Positions 31,573 through 64,000 of a stretch of DNA of 64,000 bases are shown here, one piece after another. Within the stretch, counting starts at the first letter, position 1; each line of letters begins with the position of its first letter. Both the position numbers and the translations under genes were made by a program. The DNA is taken from positions 169,897 to 233,896 of the forward strand of contig WARW01000022.1 in NCBI GenBank assembly GCA_013387215.1, read 5' to 3'. Origin of the DNA: Patescibacteria group bacterium. GTDB lineage: Bacteria > Patescibacteriota > Microgenomatia > UBA12405. A model generated the notes under the pieces. It saw only the letters and a list, made by a program, of their open reading frames with translations. It had not been told where the DNA came from and searched no databases.

Positions 31573-31646
31573 CGGGAATTGGCGCAATTGGCTAGCGCGC
31601 ACGGATGGGGTCCGTGAGGCTGCAGGTTCGAATCCTGTATTCCCGA
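31573..31646 (+). tRNA. tRNA-Pro (anticodon GGG)
   Basis: Manual cloverleaf: acceptor CGGGAAT/ATTCCCG, D stem GCGC/GCGC, anticodon stem CACGG/CCGTG with loop AUGGGGU, T arm GCAGG-TTCGAAT-CCTGT; CCA not encoded. Confidence 0.85.
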
Positions 31647-31793
31647 CTCAGTTTTGTAAACAAAACTTCGTCGGATTTCAGATCGATTAAGAAATATCGA
31701 TCTTCAACCCTACTCGCTTGTATTTTATGGATTTCAACTGGACTATATATATAGTAGATTTGATGTTTTTTGCTATAATTCTTAAATAATTAA

Positions 31794-55110: not shown

Positions 55111-56283
55111 TTACTTGATAATTTCTGTTATAGCACCTGCACCAACAGTCAAACCACCTTCACGAATAGCGAAGCGTTGACCAGGTTGCATAGCAACAGG
55201 TTTAATTAATTTAACTGTCACAGCGGCATTATCGCCTGGCATGACCATTTCCATACCTTCTGGTAAGGCAATGTCACCGGTTACATCAGTAGTTCTGATG
55301 AAGACTTGAGGTCTGTAACCAGAGAAGATTGGGGTGTGACGACCACCTTCTTCTTTCTTTAATAAAATAACTTCAGCTTTGAATTCAGTGTGAGGAGTGA
55401 TTGAACCTGGTTTAGATAAAACTTGTCCTCGTTCAATATCGTCTTTTTCAACTCCGCGGAGTAATAAACCGACGTTGTCTCCTGCTTGACCTTGATCGAG
55501 CATTTTGTGGAACATTTCAACACCAGTAACGATAGCTTTTCGAGTATCTCTTAAACCGACGATTTCAATTTCATCGTTGACTTTAACGACACCTTTTTCG
55601 ATTCTACCAGTAGCGACAGTACCTCTACCTTTAATAGAGAAAACGTCTTCAACAGGCATTAAGAAAGGTTTATCGAGTTCACGAACAGGTTCAGGAATGT
55701 AAGTGTCAAGAGCTTCCATTAATTTCTTAATAGATTCAACACCATCAGCTTCACCGTTGAGAGCTTTTAAAGCAGAACCACGAATAATTGGAGTTTCATC
55801 ACCTGGGAAGCCGTATTTAGTTAATAAATCACGGATTTCCATTTCGACGAGATCTAAGAATTCTGGATCTTCAACTAAGTCGACTTTGTTTAAGAAGACT
55901 ACGAGAGATGGAACGTTAACCTGTTTAGCCAAAAGAACGTGTTCTCTGGTTTGAGGCATTGGACCATCTGGTGCAGAAACGACGAGAATAGCACCATCCA
56001 TTTGAGCAGCACCGGTGATCATGTTTTTGACGTAATCAGCGTGTCCTGGACAATCGATGTGAGCATAGTGTCTTTTTTCTGTTTCGTATTCAATGTGAGA
56101 AATGGCAATAGTGACGATTTTAGAAGAATCACGGACAGTACCACCCTTAGCGATATCTGCATATGATTTTGCACTTCCTTGTACTTTAGAAATTGCTGCT
56201 GTTAAAGTTGTTTTACCATGATCGACGTGACCAATGGTACCGACGTTGACGTGTGGCTTAGTTCTTTGATAAGTATCTGCCAT
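55111..56283 (-). CDS. tuf: Elongation factor Tu
   Basis: [22 protein letters not shown] motifs. Confidence 0.95.
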
Positions 56284-56610
56284 TTTTTGTCTCCTTTTTT
56301 TTGATTTATTGTCTTTGGTAAGACGAAAGTTTCTAATTAATAATATTTAGAATAAAACGCTTTTAGATTGTATCAACTAAATAAAGCCATTGCAACATAC
56401 AAAATATATCAAAATGACTATATGTTAGTAGATATTTTGTCTTAATTCGTTTCTGAAATTATAACCCGTGCTACTTTAAATAAATAGGGATGACTTTGAA
56501 AAAATAATACAGAGTCGATGTGTATATATTTTTTATAAAAAAAATACCCGGCAGTAAAACAAGTTTGAAGCACAAAGGTGCAACAAACGGTTTTAGAACC
56601 GGGTTGACGG

Positions 56611-57018
56611 TTAAATACTCCAAAGGAGTCCTCGAGGTAATCTTTCAACTGATTCTGTTTGAAATAGTGCCCACTGCCCGATTTCATCTTTTTTATAGAT
56701 GTCTACATGATAATTACTATAACTGTCTAAATCAGCAGATGCACCACTGTGTCCACCCCATGCGTGATAACTTTTTTCAGAAATATAGACATTTATGCTG
56801 TCTCCACTTTCCGATTTAGAAAGACCAATAATTCTGTAGGATGTAACATGACGGCTGTCGTCTAGATAACATCCTTTAAGGTTATTAGCGATGGAAATGT
56901 TTAAAAACAAAAACATGGCATTTTGTTGACTACCTGTTGCGGCGACCAAGGCAGCAATAAGGCTACGTGCCTCTTTTTTGATTTTTCCAAACAATTCAGT
57001 TTTTCGTTTTTCGTCCAC
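56611..57018 (-). CDS. Hypothetical small protein (cassette gene 3 in the fusA-tuf insert)
   Basis: GTG start with GGGGAAAG RBS; 135 aa; U-rich terminator-like region downstream. Confidence 0.4.
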   Translation of the reverse strand: MDEKRKTELFGKIKKEARSLIAALVAATGSQQNAMFLFLNISIANNLKGCYLDDSRHVTSYRIIGLSKSESGDSINVYISEKSYHAWGGHSGASADLDSYSNYHVDIYKKDEIGQWALFQTESVERLPRGLLWSI

Positions 57019-57195
57019 TGATACTACCTACTTTCCCCTGTTTTTTTATTAATGACAGGAACCTGTTTTGGAACTTAAAACAAATTCCTACCATTAATAT
57101 ATTATTTAAAAGAGCTAGTAATAACTATTTTGTTATAGAAAATAAAACTGCAGGCATTATAAGATAGAAGGAACGTTAAGGCAATATTTTATTGC

Positions 57196-57244
57196 AAAAA
57201 AAAATACCCCAAACGTTTTTGTCAGCAAGCTGACCGTTTGAGGT
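57196..57244 (-). terminator. Complex intrinsic terminator (CCCCAAACG...CGUUUGGGG enclosing GUCAGC/GCUGAC, then U-tract); repeat copy 1
   Basis: Nested hairpin plus U7 on the minus strand directly after the 57266 gene stop; near-identical copy at 57822-57868. Confidence 0.7.
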
Positions 57245-57265
57245 ATAAGATGAAATTAGGAAATA

Positions 57266-57700
57266 TTAATAAGAAAGAATAAAGAAGTCGTAGAGCGGAG
57301 ACAAAATGTCTGAGTAGTGTCGTTTAAGAATTAGCTTGATTTTGTTTGACCAACAGATGGATCCAATGGTTATAAGATCAAGTTTGTGCTTATCAATTAT
57401 TTTAGTTTCCATTAAACCCGTAAATTTACCATTTTCAATATGAGTATCTGGATCATCTACTTCAAGATAAAGTCGATAAAAAAGATTTTGTATGCCAGCA
57501 CTATAGATTGAAAAATAATATTTACCGTCGACAAATTTTGCCTTGGTTCTAATAAAATAACTATTTTCATGTAAGTATGAAGTAGGAAGAGGTTGGTTTA
57601 AACCTTTAGCTGCACTTTTCTCAATTTCCGGAGGTATAAAGCCATTTATCAGCTCATACCAAATGTAAATGTCTTTTGTGTTTTTTTCCAATAAAATCAC
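57266..57700 (-). CDS. Hypothetical small protein, paralog 2 (IW.E...IDKHK family)
   Basis: GTG start; 144 aa; shares the IWYE and IDKHK blocks with the 57884 gene. Confidence 0.45.
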   Translation of the reverse strand: MILLEKNTKDIYIWYELINGFIPPEIEKSAAKGLNQPLPTSYLHENSYFIRTKAKFVDGKYYFSIYSAGIQNLFYRLYLEVDDPDTHIENGKFTGLMETKIIDKHKLDLITIGSICWSNKIKLILKRHYSDILSPLYDFFILSY

Positions 57701-57821
57701 TCTCTTTCTTTTAATTATCCTGATTTTAAAATGTGCTATTCAAAAAGAATGCGTGAGCTTGGCTCAATTCTTTCGAATGGGTTCGATTGTATCACAAGGT
57801 CTTTGATTTCCAAAATTTTGA

Positions 57822-57868
57822 CAAAAAATACCCCAAACGTTTTTGTCAGCAAGCTGACCGTTTGGGGT
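57822..57868 (-). terminator. Complex intrinsic terminator, repeat copy 2
   Basis: Identical to copy 1 except 2 substitutions. Confidence 0.7.
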
Positions 57869-57883
57869 GTAAGGACTAAATAA

Positions 57884-58300
57884 TTAAGATTGCAGATGAT
57901 ATGGCTTCAAATAATAGACATTTGTGTAGGGATAAAATCCTATTGGAGCATATTCATCATCTAAACTATAGACAGTACCATTCAGTTTAAATATGTCTTT
58001 TTTATAGAGCGGCTCTGCACAGATTTTGTGTTTATCAATTTCAAAGCGTTTGTTTGGCTGGTCGATTTCATACAATTCTTTAAAAAAACGAAATTGGATA
58101 TTATTGTAACCTTCTGTGTGAACTGTAATCTCAAGATTTTTTGACTCTTGTTTTGAAACTAGTTGTCTGACGAAGATACTGTGATCTTTTTCAAAAACCT
58201 GGTATACAGCAGTACATTGTCTCAATTCAAGTAAACTCTTTTTTAAATCTTCTGGTAAAGAGTTTTTGGGATATTCAACCCAAATATAAGTGGGATCCAT
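57884..58300 (-). CDS. Hypothetical small protein, paralog 1 (IW.E...IDKHK family)
   Basis: RBS AAGAGGAG plus ATG; 138 aa. Confidence 0.5.
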   Translation of the reverse strand: MDPTYIWVEYPKNSLPEDLKKSLLELRQCTAVYQVFEKDHSIFVRQLVSKQESKNLEITVHTEGYNNIQFRFFKELYEIDQPNKRFEIDKHKICAEPLYKKDIFKLNGTVYSLDDEYAPIGFYPYTNVYYLKPYHLQS

Positions 58301-58410
58301 TAAACCATCTCCTCTTTTATTATTTTTCCTAATTTTAAAATGAGCTATTCAAGAAAAATGCCGCATTCTTCCGAATTGGGCTGATTGTATCATAAGATCT
58401 GAAATTTTGG

Positions 58411-58441
58411 CAAAAAAAATACCCCCGAAGGATCGGGGGTA
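58411..58441 (-). terminator. Intrinsic terminator after fusA (ACCCCCGA-UCCU-UCGGGGGU plus U8)
   Basis: 8-bp GC-rich stem, U-tract on the minus strand, 20 nt after the fusA stop. Confidence 0.8.
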
Positions 58442-58462
58442 TAAAAAATTCAAAATTAATTT

Positions 58463-60574
58463 TTATTTTGCAGCGACACCAGTCTTGATGGTCAAAGCTT
58501 CTTGAACATCTCTTGGAACCGGATCATAGTGTGATGGTTCCATGTAGAATGAACCTCGACCTTGAGTCAAAGATCGGATAACTGTGGCGTAACCACGGAT
58601 AGCTTCCAAAGGAATGAAGGCGTTAATGGTGGTAAAGTTGCCTGATTCAGTTGTACCGTTGATTTGGCCACGGCGAGATGAAAGATCTCCGATAACAGTA
58701 CCCAAGAATTCAGATGGGGTGCTAACTTCGAACTTCATAATAGGTTCAAGTATTTGAGGTTTAGCTTTAGTAAATGCATCTTTAATTGCATATGCACCAG
58801 CTAGTTTGAATGCCATTTCAGAAGAATCGACTTCGTGGTAGGTACCGTCGTAAACAGTAACTTTAATATCGGTAGCTGGATAGCCAGCAATAATACCTTT
58901 AAGCAATGTTTCTCGGACACCTTTTTCAATAGCAGGAATGAAGTTGGCAGGAATTGCACCACCTTTAACAGCGTTGACAAATTCAACACCTTCTCCCCTA
59001 TTTTTAGGTTCGATTTTAATTTTACAATGACCGTATTGACCGTGACCGCCAGATTGATGAATATATTTACCTTCACCGTCTGCAGGAGCAGAAATAGCTT
59101 CTCGATAAGCAACTTGAGGAGCACCGGTTTTGACGCCAACTCCGAATTCTCTTTTTAAACGATCAACGATAATTTCCAAATAAAGTTCACCCATACCGGC
59201 GATAATGGTTTGGCCAGTTTCGTGATTGTAGGAAACTCTAAAGGTAGGATCTTCAATTGAAAGTCTGTTTAAAGCAGCACCCATTTTTTCTTGATCGTCA
59301 GAAGTGGCTGGTTCGATTGAAAGGGAAATAACTGGTTCAGAGAATTGAATTGGAGATAATGAAATTGGGTTGTTTGCATCGCAAAGAGTGTCACCAGTAG
59401 TAGATTCTTTTAAACCAATACAGGCAACGATTTCTCCAGCGAAACCTTCTTCAATACCTTCTCTTTTATCAGCATGCATCAATAGCAAACGTCCGATTCT
59501 TTCGCTCTTTTTCTTGGTGGTGTTGTAGACTTCAGTACCTGCTTTTAAGGTGCCTGAGTAAACACGAACATAAGAAAGAGTACCAACGTGGGCATCTGAT
59601 TGAACTTTAAAAAGAAGAGCAGAAAGAGGTTCAGTCTTTTCTGGTTTTCTGGTTAAAATGTCATTAGTTTCAGGATCATAACCTTCGACTGGAGGTAAAT
59701 CCAAAGGAGAAGGTAAATAATCAACGATACCATCGAGAATTGGATGGATACCTTTGTTTCTCCAAGCAGCACCGCAGTAAACTGGGAATAATTTTCGAGC
59801 AATAGTAGCTTTTCTTAAAGCTGCTTTTAATTCTGGAACAGAAATTTCTTCATCATTTAAGAATTTTTCCATTAAAACTTCGTCTTCACCAGCGATTTTT
59901 TCAATCATTTCTGCACGAGCTTTGAGAGCGGCATCTTTATATTCATCAGTGACATCTTTAGTGGTAAATTCCATACCTTCAACGTCCTTATCGTAGACAA
60001 TCATTTTGAGAGTCATAAGATCGACGACACCAACGTGGTCGTGTTCTTCACCAACAGGAATAACGACTGGAACTATTGGAGCTCGTAATTTTTCATTAAT
60101 ACTTTGAAGAGTACCTTTGAAAGAAGCACCAATTTTATCCATTTTATTGACGAAAGCAATTCGAGGAACACCATATTTGTCGGCTTGTCTCCAAACAGTT
60201 TCAGATTGAGCTTGAACACCAGCGTTTCCGTCGAAAATCATGATAGCACCGTCTAATACACGCAAAGATCGTTCTACTTCAGCAGTAAAATCGACGTGTC
60301 CTGGAGTATCGATAATATTTAAACGGTAATCTTTCCAATAAGTAGTAATACAGGCAGATTGAATAGTAATACCTCTTTCTTTTTCCTGAACCATGGAATC
60401 GGTAGTAGTTGAACCTTCGTCAACTGAACCAATTTTGTGAATCTTTCCAGTATAGAAGAGAATTCTTTCAGTAGTAGTAGTTTTTCCACCGTCAATGTGG
60501 GCAATAATACCGATGTTTCGGACCTTTTCCATAGGTACTTCTCGGTTTTTAGTAAGTTTGATTTGTTCGGCCAT
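58463..60574 (-). CDS. fusA: Elongation factor G
   Basis: Start trimmed to MAEQIKL (ATG); AHIDGGKTT, DTPGHVDF, NKMD motifs. Confidence 0.95.
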   Translation of the reverse strand: MAEQIKLTKNREVPMEKVRNIGIIAHIDGGKTTTTERILFYTGKIHKIGSVDEGSTTTDSMVQEKERGITIQSACITTYWKDYRLNIIDTPGHVDFTAEVERSLRVLDGAIMIFDGNAGVQAQSETVWRQADKYGVPRIAFVNKMDKIGASFKGTLQSINEKLRAPIVPVVIPVGEEHDHVGVVDLMTLKMIVYDKDVEGMEFTTKDVTDEYKDAALKARAEMIEKIAGEDEVLMEKFLNDEEISVPELKAALRKATIARKLFPVYCGAAWRNKGIHPILDGIVDYLPSPLDLPPVEGYDPETNDILTRKPEKTEPLSALLFKVQSDAHVGTLSYVRVYSGTLKAGTEVYNTTKKKSERIGRLLLMHADKREGIEEGFAGEIVACIGLKESTTGDTLCDANNPISLSPIQFSEPVISLSIEPATSDDQEKMGAALNRLSIEDPTFRVSYNHETGQTIIAGMGELYLEIIVDRLKREFGVGVKTGAPQVAYREAISAPADGEGKYIHQSGGHGQYGHCKIKIEPKNRGEGVEFVNAVKGGAIPANFIPAIEKGVRETLLKGIIAGYPATDIKVTVYDGTYHEVDSSEMAFKLAGAYAIKDAFTKAKPQILEPIMKFEVSTPSEFLGTVIGDLSSRRGQINGTTESGNFTTINAFIPLEAIRGYATVIRSLTQGRGSFYMEPSHYDPVPRDVQEALTIKTGVAAK

Positions 60575-60673
60575 AAAATTAATTTGTAAGTAAAAAATAA
60601 CTGTTACCTGTAAAGTCGGCAACAGTGAACGGTTTTATGATACCATGAGGCTTAGTTATAATAAAGAACTATA

Positions 60674-61993
60674 ATGAATAGTATGCAGAATACAGAAATT
60701 GCAATTATTGGCGGAGGTTTAACAGGTTTGACGGCTGCATACCGATTGTCAAAAACAGGTGCTAAAGTTACTGTTTTTGAGAAAAGCAGTAATTTGGGAG
60801 GACTGGCTGGCGGTTTTCAAATCAATGGAACCAGTCTTGAAAAAGCTTATCATCACATTTTTAGAACTGATAAAGAAATTATAAACTTAACAAAAGAGCT
60901 AAAAATCGATAAAAAATTGAAATGGCACGAAAGCTCGATTGGTCTTTATTACAATAAAAAATTATATCCATTTGTTACGCCAGTTGAACTTTTGAAATTT
61001 GATCAATTGGGTCTGGTTGATAAATTCAGATTAGGCTTGGTGGCAGTTTATTTGCAAAAGTCTAAAAATTATAAAGATTTGATAAATATTCCAGCTGCTG
61101 ATTGGATGGAAAAATGGTGCGGGAAAAGAGCTTATAAGGTTATTTGGGAACCACTATTGAAAGGCAAATTTCATAATTATTATAAAAAAGTTTCCATGGC
61201 CTGGCTTTGGGCAAGAATTAATACCCGGGGAAATTCAAAAGAAAAAGGCGAACAAACCGAAAAACTAGGATATTTTGATGGCGGGTTTGAAATAATTTCT
61301 AAAGCGTTGGAAAAAGAAATCAAAAAACATGGCGGCAAAATTATTTTAAATAGCAATATTGAAAAAATTAAGGAAGATCGGAATGGAAAAGTGAAAATTA
61401 AAATTGAGGGAAAAGAAATGAGTTTTGACAAGGTTATAGCTTCTATACCAAGCCATGTTTTAGGAAAATTAATTGATGCAAAAAAATATAAAAAATATAT
61501 CGAAAAATTAAACAGTATAAATTATTTAGGAGCAATCACGGTGGTGTTTTCGTCTTTCCAAAGCCTGAGCAAATATTACTGGCATAATATAAATGATATA
61601 AAATCCCCTTTCCTGGCATTTTTGCAGCACACAAATTTGGTGGATAAATCCAATTATAAAAATGAAGAAGTATATTATTTGGGAACTTACCTTCCACATG
61701 AACACAAATATTTTAAAGCCAGTGAAGAAGAAATTTATAAAGATTTTTTTGATTATCTTAAAAATATATTCCCTGATTTTGATAGAAATAAAATTACTTC
61801 AAAGTATGTTTTCAAGCTGGCTAATGCTCAACACGTGGTGGACACAAAATATGTGAATAAAATTCCTGATTATGAAACGCCAATAAAAAATTTATATTTG
61901 GCCAATTTTTCCCAAATATTTCCAGAAGACCGCGGCACGAATTTTGCAGTGAGAGAGGGAAACAAAATATCAAAAATAATACAAAATCCATAA
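60674..61993 (+). CDS. FAD-dependent oxidoreductase (amine oxidase/phytoene desaturase-like)
   Basis: N-terminal Rossmann IAIIGGGLTGLTAAYRL...VFEKSSNLGG. Confidence 0.7.
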   Translation: MNSMQNTEIAIIGGGLTGLTAAYRLSKTGAKVTVFEKSSNLGGLAGGFQINGTSLEKAYHHIFRTDKEIINLTKELKIDKKLKWHESSIGLYYNKKLYPFVTPVELLKFDQLGLVDKFRLGLVAVYLQKSKNYKDLINIPAADWMEKWCGKRAYKVIWEPLLKGKFHNYYKKVSMAWLWARINTRGNSKEKGEQTEKLGYFDGGFEIISKALEKEIKKHGGKIILNSNIEKIKEDRNGKVKIKIEGKEMSFDKVIASIPSHVLGKLIDAKKYKKYIEKLNSINYLGAITVVFSSFQSLSKYYWHNINDIKSPFLAFLQHTNLVDKSNYKNEEVYYLGTYLPHEHKYFKASEEEIYKDFFDYLKNIFPDFDRNKITSKYVFKLANAQHVVDTKYVNKIPDYETPIKNLYLANFSQIFPEDRGTNFAVREGNKISKIIQNP

Positions 61994-61996
61994 AAC

Positions 61997-62025
61997 AGAA
62001 AAAAGAGGAGAAAGAAACTCCTCTT
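61997..62025 (-). terminator. Terminator hairpin AGAGGAG-AAAGAAA-CTCCTCT with U-tract on the minus strand
   Basis: Follows the 62024 gene stop; overlaps the end of the convergent oxidoreductase gene. Confidence 0.6.
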
Positions 62026-62422
62026 ATCTAAGATAAAGTCGTGAAGTGCAAAGATAAAGAGAAAAGTTTCTGACATTGTGACCTAGATTAAAGAAGGCAT
62101 CACGGACTTCATAGCTAAAAAAATTCCAATCGGTTTGATCGAGCTTCTCAAAAATAGAAGAAAAGTAGGCCATTTCGTTGAAACTGTATCTTTTCCCTTT
62201 GTCAGATAGATAATTGTCATAAATAATTTGAAAAGCTTTATCATCTGAAGTCTTTTTAAGTTGGTATTTAGATATTGGGGTTATTTTTAGTACTTTTGCT
62301 TTTAATGATCGGTCGTTTTTTATGTCAACTTTGAGTCCTACCAGTTTGGCGAGTTTTTTTAAACAAGATTCTGTTCGCCAAGTAATTATTTTAGCTTGGA
62401 TGTTTTGAAAGAAAATAAACAC
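62024..62422 (-). CDS. Hypothetical small protein, family WR.ES..L.KLAK..GL (paralog A)
   Basis: Probable GTG start 8 nt after AGAGAGG; homologous to the 63254 and 62632 genes. Confidence 0.45.
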   Translation of the reverse strand: MFIFFQNIQAKIITWRTESCLKKLAKLVGLKVDIKNDRSLKAKVLKITPISKYQLKKTSDDKAFQIIYDNYLSDKGKRYSFNEMAYFSSIFEKLDQTDWNFFSYEVRDAFFNLGHNVRNFSLYLCTSRLYLR

Positions 62423-62631
62423 AATAAACACCTCTCTTTCTGTTTTATGGATTTTTAAAGTCCAAAGATAAAAATCTAAAGCAAAATTAGATTTATCTGA
62501 ATACGGGAAAATTATACACCTTAAACTTAAGCAAGGTTTTATTTGAAAAATGTAAATCCATAAAATATAAAAAGATGTTAAAGAGGAGAAAAAATTCCCC
62601 TCTTAAAAAGTATTATTGTTTTTTAGCTGTC

Positions 62632-63060
62632 TTATTCGTTTTTTGATGAAGATAATTTGATTTTGGCTGCATGTGCTTCGAACTGAGAAAGATCATCTTC
62701 TAATGATTTAGCCTTCCAATAGTCCTGTCTGTCGATAAAAAACCGATTAAGGTTATGGAAAAACAACATTTCTTCATAATAAGTCAAACCTTTATCTGCC
62801 CCGATTGTAAAAAGATTCACGCCATCTTCTTTGACAATAGGAACGTGGAATAAATTTCCTGCCTCAAAAAAATCAAAAATTTCTTGTCTAACTGTCTGTT
62901 CTTTGGGGGAACAATTACATTTGTCCATTTCAAGACCATTAACAATAATTCTTGTTAAACCACGCGATCTTTTAACAGATACTTTTACACCGACATCTCC
63001 CATTACAAATTGCAAGCAGCCTTCCATGCAAAACCGTAGCCACCATTTTTTTAGAGTCAT
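62632..63060 (-). CDS. Hypothetical small protein, same family (paralog B)
   Basis: RBS AAAGGGG plus ATG; 142 aa. Confidence 0.5.
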   Translation of the reverse strand: MTLKKWWLRFCMEGCLQFVMGDVGVKVSVKRSRGLTRIIVNGLEMDKCNCSPKEQTVRQEIFDFFEAGNLFHVPIVKEDGVNLFTIGADKGLTYYEEMLFFHNLNRFFIDRQDYWKAKSLEDDLSQFEAHAAKIKLSSSKNE

Positions 63061-63253
63061 ACGAACACCCCTTTCTATATTTTATGGATTTCAAGGTACT
63101 TCAGTATTCAGAAGGAAAAGCTAAGCTATATAGAATAACCAGAATACTGGCCGATTATAACATACGCAAGCTAATAAACTGCTTAGGATTGTTGGAAAAA
63201 AAAATGAAAATCCATAAAACTCAAAAGAACCAAGAGGAGACTTAAGCCCCCTC

Positions 63254-63652
63254 TTATTTAAAAAACAGTTTTGTAGAGCAACCAACATCTTCAAGATAAT
63301 CGATCCATTTTTTTAACTTTTCAAAATGCTTTTTGCGTTTATGAGAAAAGTTCATGTGATCAATATAATCTTCAAGAATCTTATATACTTCTTCAAAATA
63401 TTTCAGTTCGTTTTGCGATAAACCACAAGATAATTGGTTTTCGTATTCATTATAGAGTTCTTTACCCTTAGCAACAAAGTTTTTAGGCAATAAGTCGTTT
63501 GTATATGGAACTATGGTGATGGTTCTATTCCCAGGGATATACCTAGAACTAAAATTAATTTCTAAACCTAGAGTTTTAGCCAAATTAATAAAATTTGATT
63601 CGGCGCGCCATAAATAAAAATCTCTCTTCATTTGTAAAACATAATCAATCAT
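63254..63652 (-). CDS. Hypothetical small protein, same family (paralog C)
   Basis: RBS GAAGGAG plus ATG; WRAESNFINLAKTLGLEI aligns with paralog A WRTESCLKKLAKLVGLKV. Confidence 0.5.
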   Translation of the reverse strand: MIDYVLQMKRDFYLWRAESNFINLAKTLGLEINFSSRYIPGNRTITIVPYTNDLLPKNFVAKGKELYNEYENQLSCGLSQNELKYFEEVYKILEDYIDHMNFSHKRKKHFEKLKKWIDYLEDVGCSTKLFFK

Positions 63653-63938
63653 TTATTTTCTCCTTCTTTCCGTTTGGATAAATATCAAAGCAAAGGCTGA
63701 TTGGGCACGCTTCTATGTTGCAACGTGAAGTCCATTTTTGGAAACAATCAAATAAAGGTCTTATCCGATGTGTTTCGGAAAAAAGATGCATATGTTGGCA
63801 AATTATATGGTAGATGTCTATAAAATAGATTACCTCGTTGAAGTTAGAGTTTTCTTGATATTGTCTATTTATATAGTCCAACCAAATCTCTGAGTGAATT
63901 TTTTTGATTTTATCAGGAAGTATAAATTTGTTTTTCAA
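63645..63938 (-). CDS. Hypothetical His/Cys-rich small protein
   Basis: 97 aa; HIICQHMH...H...C...C..EAC cluster; 8-nt overlap with the downstream paralog C gene. Confidence 0.35.
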   Translation of the reverse strand: MKNKFILPDKIKKIHSEIWLDYINRQYQENSNFNEVIYFIDIYHIICQHMHLFSETHRIRPLFDCFQKWTSRCNIEACPISLCFDIYPNGKKEKIND

Positions 63939-64000
63939 AGAAATAATTCTTATTTCTCTTAAATGTAAATCTGTTCCAGGTATAATCTCAACGTCCAGCT

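Follow-up and report, generated by a model that had tools for sequence, protein, structure and literature searches.

RNase III processing stems bracket the 16S and 23S rRNAs in rRNA operons. Invertons are phase-variable invertible DNA segments with a shared core and locus-specific flanks, and in integrons the arms of attC, with RYYYAAC/GTTRRRY cores, lie adjacent to each other at the 3' end of the cassette. Bacterial mRNAs whose own 5' and 3' ends pair with each other are known for only a few single genes, icaR, hok and hbs among them. In Staphylococcus aureus, the anti-SD sequence UCCCCUG in the 3'UTR of icaR pairs with the SD region of its own mRNA, which blocks initiation and yields an RNase III substrate (PMC3868564). 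In hok, the long-range 5'–3' stem tac/fbi shuts the full-length mRNA with the SD unavailable, and the mRNA becomes active only once its 3' end is removed (PMC9841398). Another bacterial precedent for 5'–3' UTR pairing is hbs (PMC5737220).

Within the window—the whole 64-kb stretch of DNA that we analysed—matched inverted repeats surround the units of an array of small genes, and this observation is confirmed. As the best reading, we tentatively propose that the repeats form a 5'UTR–3'UTR panhandle in transcripts that read past a weak post-stop hairpin. Were this true, pairing would be built into every unit of a fast-evolving array in which natural covariation already supports it, and the array would offer a compact model both for the silencing or unit-wise cutting of read-through transcripts and for new gene copies that bring their own post-transcriptional lock. 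Should the repeats act on DNA, the Candidate Phyla Radiation (CPR), in which regulation and genome plasticity are almost unexplored, would have a new type of cassette or phase-variation system. Under both readings, the array is a lineage-specific hypervariable locus by translation-factor genes that encodes about ten orphan proteins.

As in icaR, most units of the array have, beside the 3' arm, an anti-SD-like sequence that is predicted to face the SD of the same mRNA. Complementarity of the 3' region to the 5'UTR covers the SD in the predicted duplexes of five of the six units, and every MFE fold contains the panhandle. However, icaR is one gene with a long 3'UTR, whereas the array has a separate pair for each unit, a 3' arm that follows a terminator-like hairpin and a conserved 12-nt core common to all units. 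The predicted 5'–3' stem resembles that of hok/sok in closing the full-length mRNA over the SD, but the array proteins (~135 aa; 132–142 aa) are predicted to be mainly helical bundles with one β-hairpin, not membrane toxins of ~50 aa, and neither an antisense RNA gene nor a mok-like leader ORF was seen in the array. An Rfam scan of 56000–64000 at permissive E-values gave nothing near any gathering score and no antisense RNA family; together with protein size and the helical-bundle model, this led us to reject a type I toxin–antitoxin (hok/sok-like) system. Read-through models of the array fold like rRNA precursors, with a private long-range inverted repeat per unit in a long RNA, although the array RNAs are mRNAs with their own promoters and cleavage is only proposed for them.

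Inverted repeats in the array

The array and its repeats occupy the following positions in the window.

31723..31734, minus strand: lone sixth core (plus-strand reading TTTTATGGATTT)
60674..61993, plus strand: amine-oxidase-like FAD oxidoreductase gene (Pfam Amino_oxidase, 6e-30)
61983..62001, minus strand: unit A, 3' arm, reads AAAATCCATAAAACAGAAA on the plus strand, complementary to 62437-62455
62003..62025, minus strand: hairpin that follows the stop of gene A, AAGAGGAG-loop-CTCCTCTT (terminator-like scan)
62024..62431, minus strand: gene A, family member, 135 aa as given in the ORF list
62437..62455, minus strand: 5' arm of unit A, immediately 5' of the SD GAGAGG (62434-62439)
62511..62516, minus strand: -10-like box TATAAT of unit A, ~55 nt upstream of the 5' arm (read from the sequence)
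62554..62574, minus strand: 3' arm of unit B, matching 63071-63091 at 20/21 positions
62580..62603, minus strand: hairpin 3' of gene B, AGAGGGGA-loop-TCTCCTCT (terminator-like scan)
62632..63060, minus strand: gene B, 142 aa, divergent member of the same superfamily
63071..63091, minus strand: 5' arm of unit B, immediately 5' of the SD GGGGTG (63066-63071)
63154..63159, minus strand: -10-like box TATAAT of unit B, TGTTATAAT (read as for unit A)
63207..63225, minus strand: 3' arm of the C-D unit (plus-strand reading AAAATCCATAAAACTCAAA)
63231..63256, minus strand: hairpin over the gene C stop codon (terminator-like scan)
63254..63652, minus strand: gene C, 132 aa (AF2 model, pLDDT 87.7)
63645..64000, minus strand: gene D, cut by the window end; fourth paralog (full protein P0005, 136 aa)
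Exact copies of AAATCCATAAAA (sequence scan): 61984(+), 62443(-), 62554(+), 63080(-), 63208(+) and 31723(-)

The inverted pairs of genes A and B were complementary at 19/19 positions (61983-62001 with 62437-62455) and 20/21 positions (62554-62574 with 63071-63091), respectively, and each was better than 1,000 of 1,000 shuffles; at its one mismatched position, the unit B pair would form G.U in the sense RNA. The initial annotation had recorded both, at coordinates a few bases off, together with a more degenerate pair at gene C. The upstream arm that it gave to gene C (63655-63700) is no better than chance (332 of 1,000 shuffles), and the 3' arm alone is present in the window. Gene D starts ~57 nt past the window end and overlaps C by 8 nt; because of this overlap, C and D are taken as one unit, and the true partner of the 3' arm of C should lie upstream of D, past the window end. 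What had been annotated as a separate His/Cys-rich ORF (63645-63938) is actually the 3' part of D. The terminator-like hairpins (AAGAGGNG...CNCCTCTT) reported earlier are present at 62003-62025, 62580-62603 and 63231-63256, and that of unit A is canonical (an 8-bp stem, then UUUUUUCUGUUUU), with a descending arm that is an anti-SD-like sequence. For gene A, the sequence makes the GTG at 62422 a more probable start than the one at 62431, because the first GTG belongs to the SD.

The proposal that A, B and C are paralogs stands directly for A and C (25% identity, E=3e-8); B matches A over 23 N-terminal residues only, but aligns with the family over its full length. The array proteins are orphans, with about ten known sequences in the family. 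The AF2 model of one family member is confident—mostly a helical bundle, with one β-hairpin—and its structural comparison gave no informative match. Sequence searches of Pfam, PHROGs, PADLOC and PDB with the array proteins returned nothing credible, no DNA-binding fold or domain was detected in these proteins, and a family HMM run over the 64-kb window and 20 kb of L114 found nothing beyond the array locus. The units clearly arise by local duplication.

The arms share a 12-mer, AAATCCATAAAA, of which the 64 kb hold six exact copies, five of them inside 61984-63219. With at most one mismatch, 14 copies were found compared with 2.9 expected, a number equalled in none of 100 shuffles. The sixth copy lies 19 nt 3' of a hairpin that itself follows tRNA-Pro; no partner arm was found for it within 2.8 kb, and the ten ORFs scanned around it include RecA and no site-specific recombinase. 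We rejected the core as a DNA uptake sequence (copies too few and too localised), as a DnaA box or a dif/pdif site (sequence and spacing misfit in both cases) and as an UP element of the next promoter, which would suit only 3 of the 7 3' arms.

Related genomes and pair specificity

Related metagenomic genomes, from a few very small uncultured CPR, Shapirobacteria-like bacteria, share this architecture and its location, between rfbD and the amine-oxidase-like gene next to fusA. On one side, the array is bordered by the conserved oxidoreductase gene, which is transcribed convergently with it and whose stop codon, TAA, falls within the outermost core motif. L099, L113 and L114 also have an ortholog beside their arrays, in every case with a stop codon that adjoins the core. 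The flanking oxidoreductases are ~50% identical across genomes, and the unit proteins share only ~20-25% identity. The initial picture of fusA as an island between cassette arrays is only loosely right: the oxidoreductase gene intervenes, and the genes at fusA-tuf are of a different family without this repeat. Family genes at the rfbD/oxidoreductase site number 0, 1, 1, 3 or at least 4 in the related genomes, a distribution that does not track phylogeny.

Five further units bounded by inverted repeats were found in these genomes. Across the six complete units, which come from four genomes, the 5' arm has a TATAAT-type box on its upstream side and the SD on its downstream side, and the 3' arm follows the hairpin of the last ORF at a distance of 1-17 nt; the same -10-like box as in unit A, GGTATAAT or GTGTATAAT, stands upstream of units in L099/L117, L113 and L114a. 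The arms enclose transcription units, not single genes—two units are bicistronic (L114 genes 2 and 3, and C-D in the window), and in neither do the two genes have a significant arm between them. Every 3' arm comes after a terminator-like hairpin; the hairpins adjoin stop codons, and about half of them are without an adjacent U-tract. A terminator ahead of the 3' arm combined with an absence of other repeat-bounded copies had been named at the outset as grounds for abandoning the proposal; the hairpins bear out the first half and the five further units contradict the second. In L114, a mere 12 nt separate the 5' arm of unit b from the preceding 3' arm, too few for a promoter; the SD of this unit, 38 nt from the arm, is uncovered, and the hairpin of L114 gene 2 lies inside the operon.

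Covariation, permutation and energy tests covered the six pairs available from the window and the related genomes. Both arms of L114 unit a carry ATCAATAAAA, whereas every other unit has ATCCATAAAA (a core change of C to A). Pairing the 14-nt extensions within units gave better matches than permuting them (an equal match in 2 of 720 permutations), and duplex energies averaged -28.7 kcal/mol with own compared with -23.6 kcal/mol with permuted partners (again 2 of 720); the gene specificity of the pairs, first claimed for the window, thus holds once the units of related genomes are added. By formal count, four pairs have double-sided changes, giving a covariation score of 0.183, compared with 0.117 for shuffles (10/500) and at most 0.097 for slid controls, and the outer boundary of the helix is sharp in this analysis. 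Our reading of the alignment gave seven sense-strand G.U/U.G cells in the helix compared with one antisense-only wobble cell, an excess that could reflect composition (5' arms G-rich near the SD and 3' arms U-rich). The sense duplex had the better energy in four of the six units, which is not decisive for RNA versus DNA. The arms of the metagenomic units contain bulges and indels outside the core.

Proposed pairing of mRNA ends and rival readings

The order within a unit—promoter, leader of ~60 nt, 5' arm, SD, one or two ORFs, stop-abutting hairpin and 3' arm—would give an mRNA whose two ends can pair. On the 5' side, pairing would involve the 12-nt core AAAUCCAUAAAA, the unit-specific extension and the SD, which complement the 3' arm and, in most units, also the adjacent anti-SD-like CUCCUCU or CUCCCUUU. 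Transcripts ending at the hairpin would be without the 3' core and stay open; those reading through would form a closed panhandle of 20-27 bp. A number of features make read-through plausible: the missing U-tract next to several hairpins, a terminating ribosome that would sit on the hairpin, the promoter-less gap of L114 unit b, the intra-operon hairpin of L114 gene 2 and the stop codons that abut the hairpins. Such a panhandle would hide the SD and provide a double-stranded substrate of the size cut by RNase III, by which long read-through RNAs may be silenced or cut to unit length.

Predicted duplexes, with complementarity that reaches into the SD in all units except one, range from -25 to -37 kcal/mol. 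In silico, each full-length transcript that was modelled forms a panhandle of its own, with each 5' core paired to its own 3' core in the MFE fold, and the two modelled read-through array transcripts also pair their own cores, with each unit looped out by a private stem. The repeats, where they lie with respect to promoter-like boxes, SD and hairpin, how they covary and how they are predicted to fold are matters of observation. From there we infer transcription of the 3' arm, pairing in the cell and an effect on translation or processing. If termination at the canonical hairpin of unit A is efficient, the core is absent from the RNA. A further point against the panhandle is that pairing alone cannot explain a near-invariant 12-nt core across diverged units and genomes; a trans-acting factor is possibly behind this conservation. 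The choice originally offered was between base-paired mRNA ends and mini-cassettes bounded by terminal inverted repeats. Position, covariation, SD involvement and folds favour the former; the latter fails as a classical transposon and is possible as an inversion or recombination cassette.

Read as DNA, the arms may be recombination sites at which a trans-encoded site-specific recombinase inverts the SD-ORF-hairpin segment relative to a fixed outside promoter (ON/OFF), or captures, excises or shuffles cassettes, with strand exchange or gene conversion keeping both arms of a unit alike. We consider this the main rival, possible but unlikely. Protein recognition would naturally account for core conservation, and inverton repeats (Bacteroides Mpi-type) are typically built of a conserved core and a locus-specific extension. 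The array also resembles invertons in its 12-21 bp inverted repeats, in arms 450-1000 bp apart around a segment of a few hundred bp and in the clustering of several segments in one genome, and its promoter-like boxes sit outside the repeat-bounded segment. Consistent with recombination are, in addition, the variable gene count that does not follow phylogeny, the lone core adjoining a tRNA gene and two Logan contigs that end inside or beside units. Unlike an inverton, however, the array segment holds an ORF with the promoter outside, and only one orientation was seen: in all genomes assembled, the seven units all run in the direction of their promoter-like boxes. Near the array no invertase was found; no recombinase Pfam family occurs in 20 kb around the L114 array, and no recombinase is visible among the ORFs near the window array and no site-specific one among the ten by the lone core, although one could act in trans from elsewhere. 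Bulges and indels such as those in the arms are better tolerated by RNA helices than by recombinase sites, and recombination gives no reason for the repeat to take in the SD or for arm differences that are G.U-compatible on the sense strand. The family is, moreover, limited to one locus, with no sign of transfer.

Rather unlikely, in our estimate, is that the arms are sites of an undescribed CPR cassette system, in which a trans recombinase acting on the 12-bp core would individually invert (ON/OFF), or add and remove, whole SD-ORF-hairpin modules from a hypervariable family of orphan proteins at one constant hotspot flanked by two convergent housekeeping genes, integron- or inverton-like without attC or a linked integrase. 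As in integrons, the genes of the array are small and mostly orphan, all face one way at a site that is fixed, vary in number between relatives and each have an imperfect inverted repeat with a conserved core and a variable remainder. Integron cassettes proper were rejected: the array arms flank the gene and have the core AAATCCATAAAA, the units have their own promoter-like boxes, and neither intI/attI nor any integrase family is listed near the array.

It seems improbable that a DNA- or RNA-binding protein uses the core, which stands at both ends of every unit, as its operator, pair specificity being a by-product of unit origin. The core sequence is conserved far past the needs of pairing, and the small helical-bundle proteins encoded right by the sites could themselves be the binders; yet a shared operator predicts a single consensus, not unit-specific extensions or a core change matched in two arms, and the proteins lack a detectable DNA-binding fold. 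We find it very improbable that the repeat is functionless, with the 3' arm a U-rich terminator tail, the 5' arm an A-rich leader and their likeness left over from unit duplication: the A/T richness of the arms, the overlap of the 3' arm with the U-rich stretch past the hairpins and the clear local duplication speak for it, but neutral remnants would not remain matched within units (19/19 and 20/21) while coding regions fall to ~20-25% identity, extensions differ between units and one core changes in both arms, and exact core copies are far over chance. A classical terminal-inverted-repeat transposon or MITE was dismissed for want of target-site duplications (no direct repeats outside the arms), of dispersal from one site and of a transposase.

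A pattern scan of metagenomes for the repeat returned 31 matches, 30 of them apparently unrelated by context and G+C, and the viral pattern scan returned one, also unrelated. Compared as population variants, L114 and L115 are identical across 11 kb.

Small-protein paralogs beside fusA

The region is part of a low-GC genome, and its fusA is 87–90% identical to fusA of Candidatus Shapirobacteria MAGs. The array of small minus-strand genes lies beyond fusA and an oxidoreductase gene.

Genes of the array and its flank in the window
58463–60571, minus strand, fusA
60674–61993, plus strand, amine-oxidase-like FAD oxidoreductase gene
62024–62431, minus strand, gene A
62632–63060, minus strand, gene B
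63254–63652, minus strand, gene C
63645 to beyond the window end, minus strand, gene D (full-length form P0005, 136 aa, obtained by exhaustive profile search)

The true start of fusA is likely the ATG at 60571, from which homologues align (MAEQIKLTK...), in place of the TTG at 60622 given in the ORF list. Genes A and C share 25% identity (E=3e-8); the match of gene B to gene A is confined to the N-terminus, and gene B aligns with the family over its full length and is also detected by the family HMM. The three paralogs recognized in the initial annotation hold, and the neighbouring ‘His/Cys-rich ORF’ is a fourth, gene D, given the N-terminus of P0005 (YVIWRTEVSFLKLAKFLKLDVEI). An AlphaFold model of C, built from nine family sequences, was confident (pLDDT 87.7, pTM 0.81) and comprises, in order, a long N-terminal helix, a beta-hairpin, three further helices and a C-terminal strand.

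The array proteins are almost orphans. The first indexed protein search matched solely the window’s own sequences, an exhaustive profile search added four representatives and a second indexed search two, and a DNA-pattern scan of metagenomes gave one true match (L099); the family HMM detected no further members in the rest of the window, L114 or L099. All family members found occupy the same site, between rfbD and an oxidoreductase gene adjoining fusA, and the search for further repeat-bounded units recommended at the outset succeeded at this site in related genomes.

Family genes in metagenomic contigs of related genomes
L099/L117: one unit
L113: one unit
L114: three genes in two units
L002, L003: no family genes; the two flanking genes are convergent and 0–16 nt apart

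The distribution of array genes is not in step with phylogeny; L114 is the nearest to the window (fusA 94%, oxidoreductase 74%), and L099 is nearer to L002 and L003, which are empty, than it is to the window.

The interval between fusA and tuf (window 56611–58300) carries three further small genes, two of which (57266–57700 and 57884–58300) are tandem duplicates of a family distinct from that of the array (25% identity; promoters and leaders 76–77% alike, terminators 96% identical). The number of these genes varies (L114 has one, L003 none), so a second variable site stands beside fusA. The str operon is split in this lineage (L114 204–12850; L002 2240–9998), with ~7–11 kb separating rpsG from fusA and carrying genes for a LytR_C protein, several small ORFs, rfbB, rfbC, rfbD and the convergent oxidoreductase gene.

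Architecture of the repeat-bounded units

Of six exact occurrences of the 12-mer core AAATCCATAAAA in the 64 kb, five fall between 61984 and 63219. Each arm consists of the core and a unit-specific extension, and a 5′ and a 3′ arm form the inverted pair that brackets a unit.

Inverted pairs in the window
61983–62001 with 62437–62455, unit A, 19/19 positions complementary
62554–62574 with 63071–63091, unit B, 20/21 positions complementary

Each pair beat 1000/1000 shuffles, confirming the repeats first noticed around genes A and B. The upstream arm proposed for gene C at 63655–63700 did not rise above chance (332/1000 shuffles were as good); gene C has a 3′ arm and no 5′ arm of its own in the window. 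As genes C and D overlap by 8 nt, they form one unit, the 5′ arm of which necessarily lies beyond the window; we predict that this arm, AAAATCCATAAAACTCAAAAG-like when read on the minus strand, lies 10–40 nt before the start of gene D (window ~64065–64100), and that rfbD marks the end of the array.

On the sense (minus) strand, a unit opens with a TATAAT-type box and a ~55–70-nt leader with a small hairpin, followed by the 5′ arm, the SD, one or more ORFs, a second hairpin ((A)AGAGG(A/G)G-loop-CNCCTCT(T)) and the 3′ arm. This second hairpin begins at or a few bases from the stop codon in A and C and ~30 nt downstream of it in B, and the 3′ arm lies 1–15 nt past the hairpin in the window units. 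All complete units share this architecture and core. In 4/4 genomes, the stop codon of the oxidoreductase gene touches or overlaps the outermost core, falling just outside the core or at its edge in L099, L113 and L114; the window ORF crosses the core motif at 61985–61993 (CAA AAT CCA TAA), and its C-terminus gains Q-N-P. In L114, a single arm pair encloses two genes that no arm separates, which indicates that the repeat marks out transcription units, not ORFs; the view that each gene has its own flanking pair thus applies to A and B, and not to this L114 pair or to the single C–D unit.

Two Logan contigs from other samples break within the array: L115 ends at L114 coordinate 11004, between L114 genes 2 and 3, and L117 ends (1540) inside the 3′ arm of its unit. 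These breaks could stem from low coverage or from structural variation at the repeats.

Arm covariation and predicted pairing of mRNA ends

At present, the arms are best read as a unit-specific device for pairing mRNA ends, a variant of an already known kind of regulation. The 14 nt past the core are unit-specific and matched within the unit (2/720 partner permutations score equally), and both arms of L114 unit a have ATCAATAAAA in place of the ATCCATAAAA of the remaining eleven arms, in agreement with the gene-specific pairs described initially. Predicted duplex energies averaged −28.7 kcal/mol for own partners versus −23.6 kcal/mol for permuted ones (2/720). In an ungapped alignment of six units, the outer boundary of the helix was sharp (four flanking columns unpaired, the next twenty paired), four pairs showed double-sided changes, and the covariation score was 0.183 versus 0.117 for shuffles (10/500 reach 0.183) and ≤0.097 for slid controls. 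By our own count in this alignment, seven cells inside the helix are G.U/U.G on the sense strand and one would be a wobble on the antisense strand alone.

Complementarity runs past the arm into the SD in 5/6 units, through either the descending hairpin arm (CUCCUCUU) or an additional CUCCCUUU/GCUUCUUU stretch between hairpin and arm. Folding of modelled transcripts, in line with the check suggested earlier for the 5′ and 3′ UTRs, predicted that the 5′ core pairs with its own 3′ core in 6/6 full-length models and likewise in two modelled read-through transcripts (window B+A, L114 a+b), in which a private stem loops out each unit with no pairing to the nearer neighbour arm. Such stems resemble the private processing stems that flank 16S and 23S rRNA. 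The predicted folds share their 5′–3′ pairing logic with icaR, in which an anti-SD motif in the 3′UTR base-pairs with the SD, prevents initiation and generates a site for RNase III (PMC3868564), the tac/fbi lock of hok (PMC9841398) and the 5′/3′UTR interaction of hbs (PMC5737220).

The weak point of the pairing reading is that the 3′ arm lies past the terminator-like hairpin, so that RNA carries it solely upon read-through. The initial two-way interpretation, an mRNA panhandle or a mini-cassette, is partly supported: arm covariation, SD complementarity and the folds speak for the panhandle, and the position of this hairpin speaks against it. Read-through is plausible, given that 12 nt between arms leave L114 unit b no space for its own promoter, that the hairpin of L114 gene 2 sits within an operon, that the stop codon touches the hairpin in most units, where a terminating ribosome would melt it, and that about half of the hairpins have no adjacent U-tract. 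Transcripts terminated at the hairpin would be open and translatable, and read-through transcripts would close on themselves and then be silenced or processed; we offer this modelled scheme tentatively, as nearly an even bet.

Alternative readings and minor repeats

A role of the arms at the DNA level, as a switch, is a live alternative to mRNA end pairing, albeit a less probable one. It would suit the nearly invariant 12-bp core, the location of the promoters outside the segment that the repeats enclose, the hotspot-like behaviour of the array site and a solitary core 85 nt after tRNA-Pro, but it leaves SD inclusion and the sense-strand G.U bias unexplained. Moreover, 7/7 units across all assemblies share one orientation, the arms of metagenomic units contain bulges and indels, and no recombinase appears among the Pfam families listed for 20 kb around the L114 array or among the window ORFs scanned. 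A protein operator shared by the units is improbable, as it does not predict unit-specific arms, and a neutral leftover of duplication is less probable still, since a 19/19 match could not be maintained while the proteins drop to ~20–25% identity. The array does not qualify as a set of classical integron cassettes, as TIR transposons or as a type I toxin–antitoxin system, since it lacks a defining feature in each case.

The solitary exact core (31723–31734) lies between tRNA-Pro (31573–31647) and a DUF2127 gene; a hairpin (AGATCGAT...ATCGATCT) precedes it by 19 nt, and a TGCTATAAT box follows ~39 nt downstream. With its flanks, it is identical to the unit B 5′ arm at 18/19 positions; no partner arm was detected within 2.8 kb. 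On the plus strand, an ATG and a 23-codon ORF (MLKRRKNSPLKKYYCFLAVLFVF) lie in the 3′ module of unit B (window 62575–62646); the ORF continues into the hairpin and antisense to gene B, probably by chance. A 17-nt inverted repeat (16/17; 57186–57202 and 57681–57697) flanks the gene at 57266–57700, with one arm in the U-rich tail past the terminator and the other over the first ORF codons, and could represent either a second kind of 5′–3′ pairing or chance in A/T-rich sequence.
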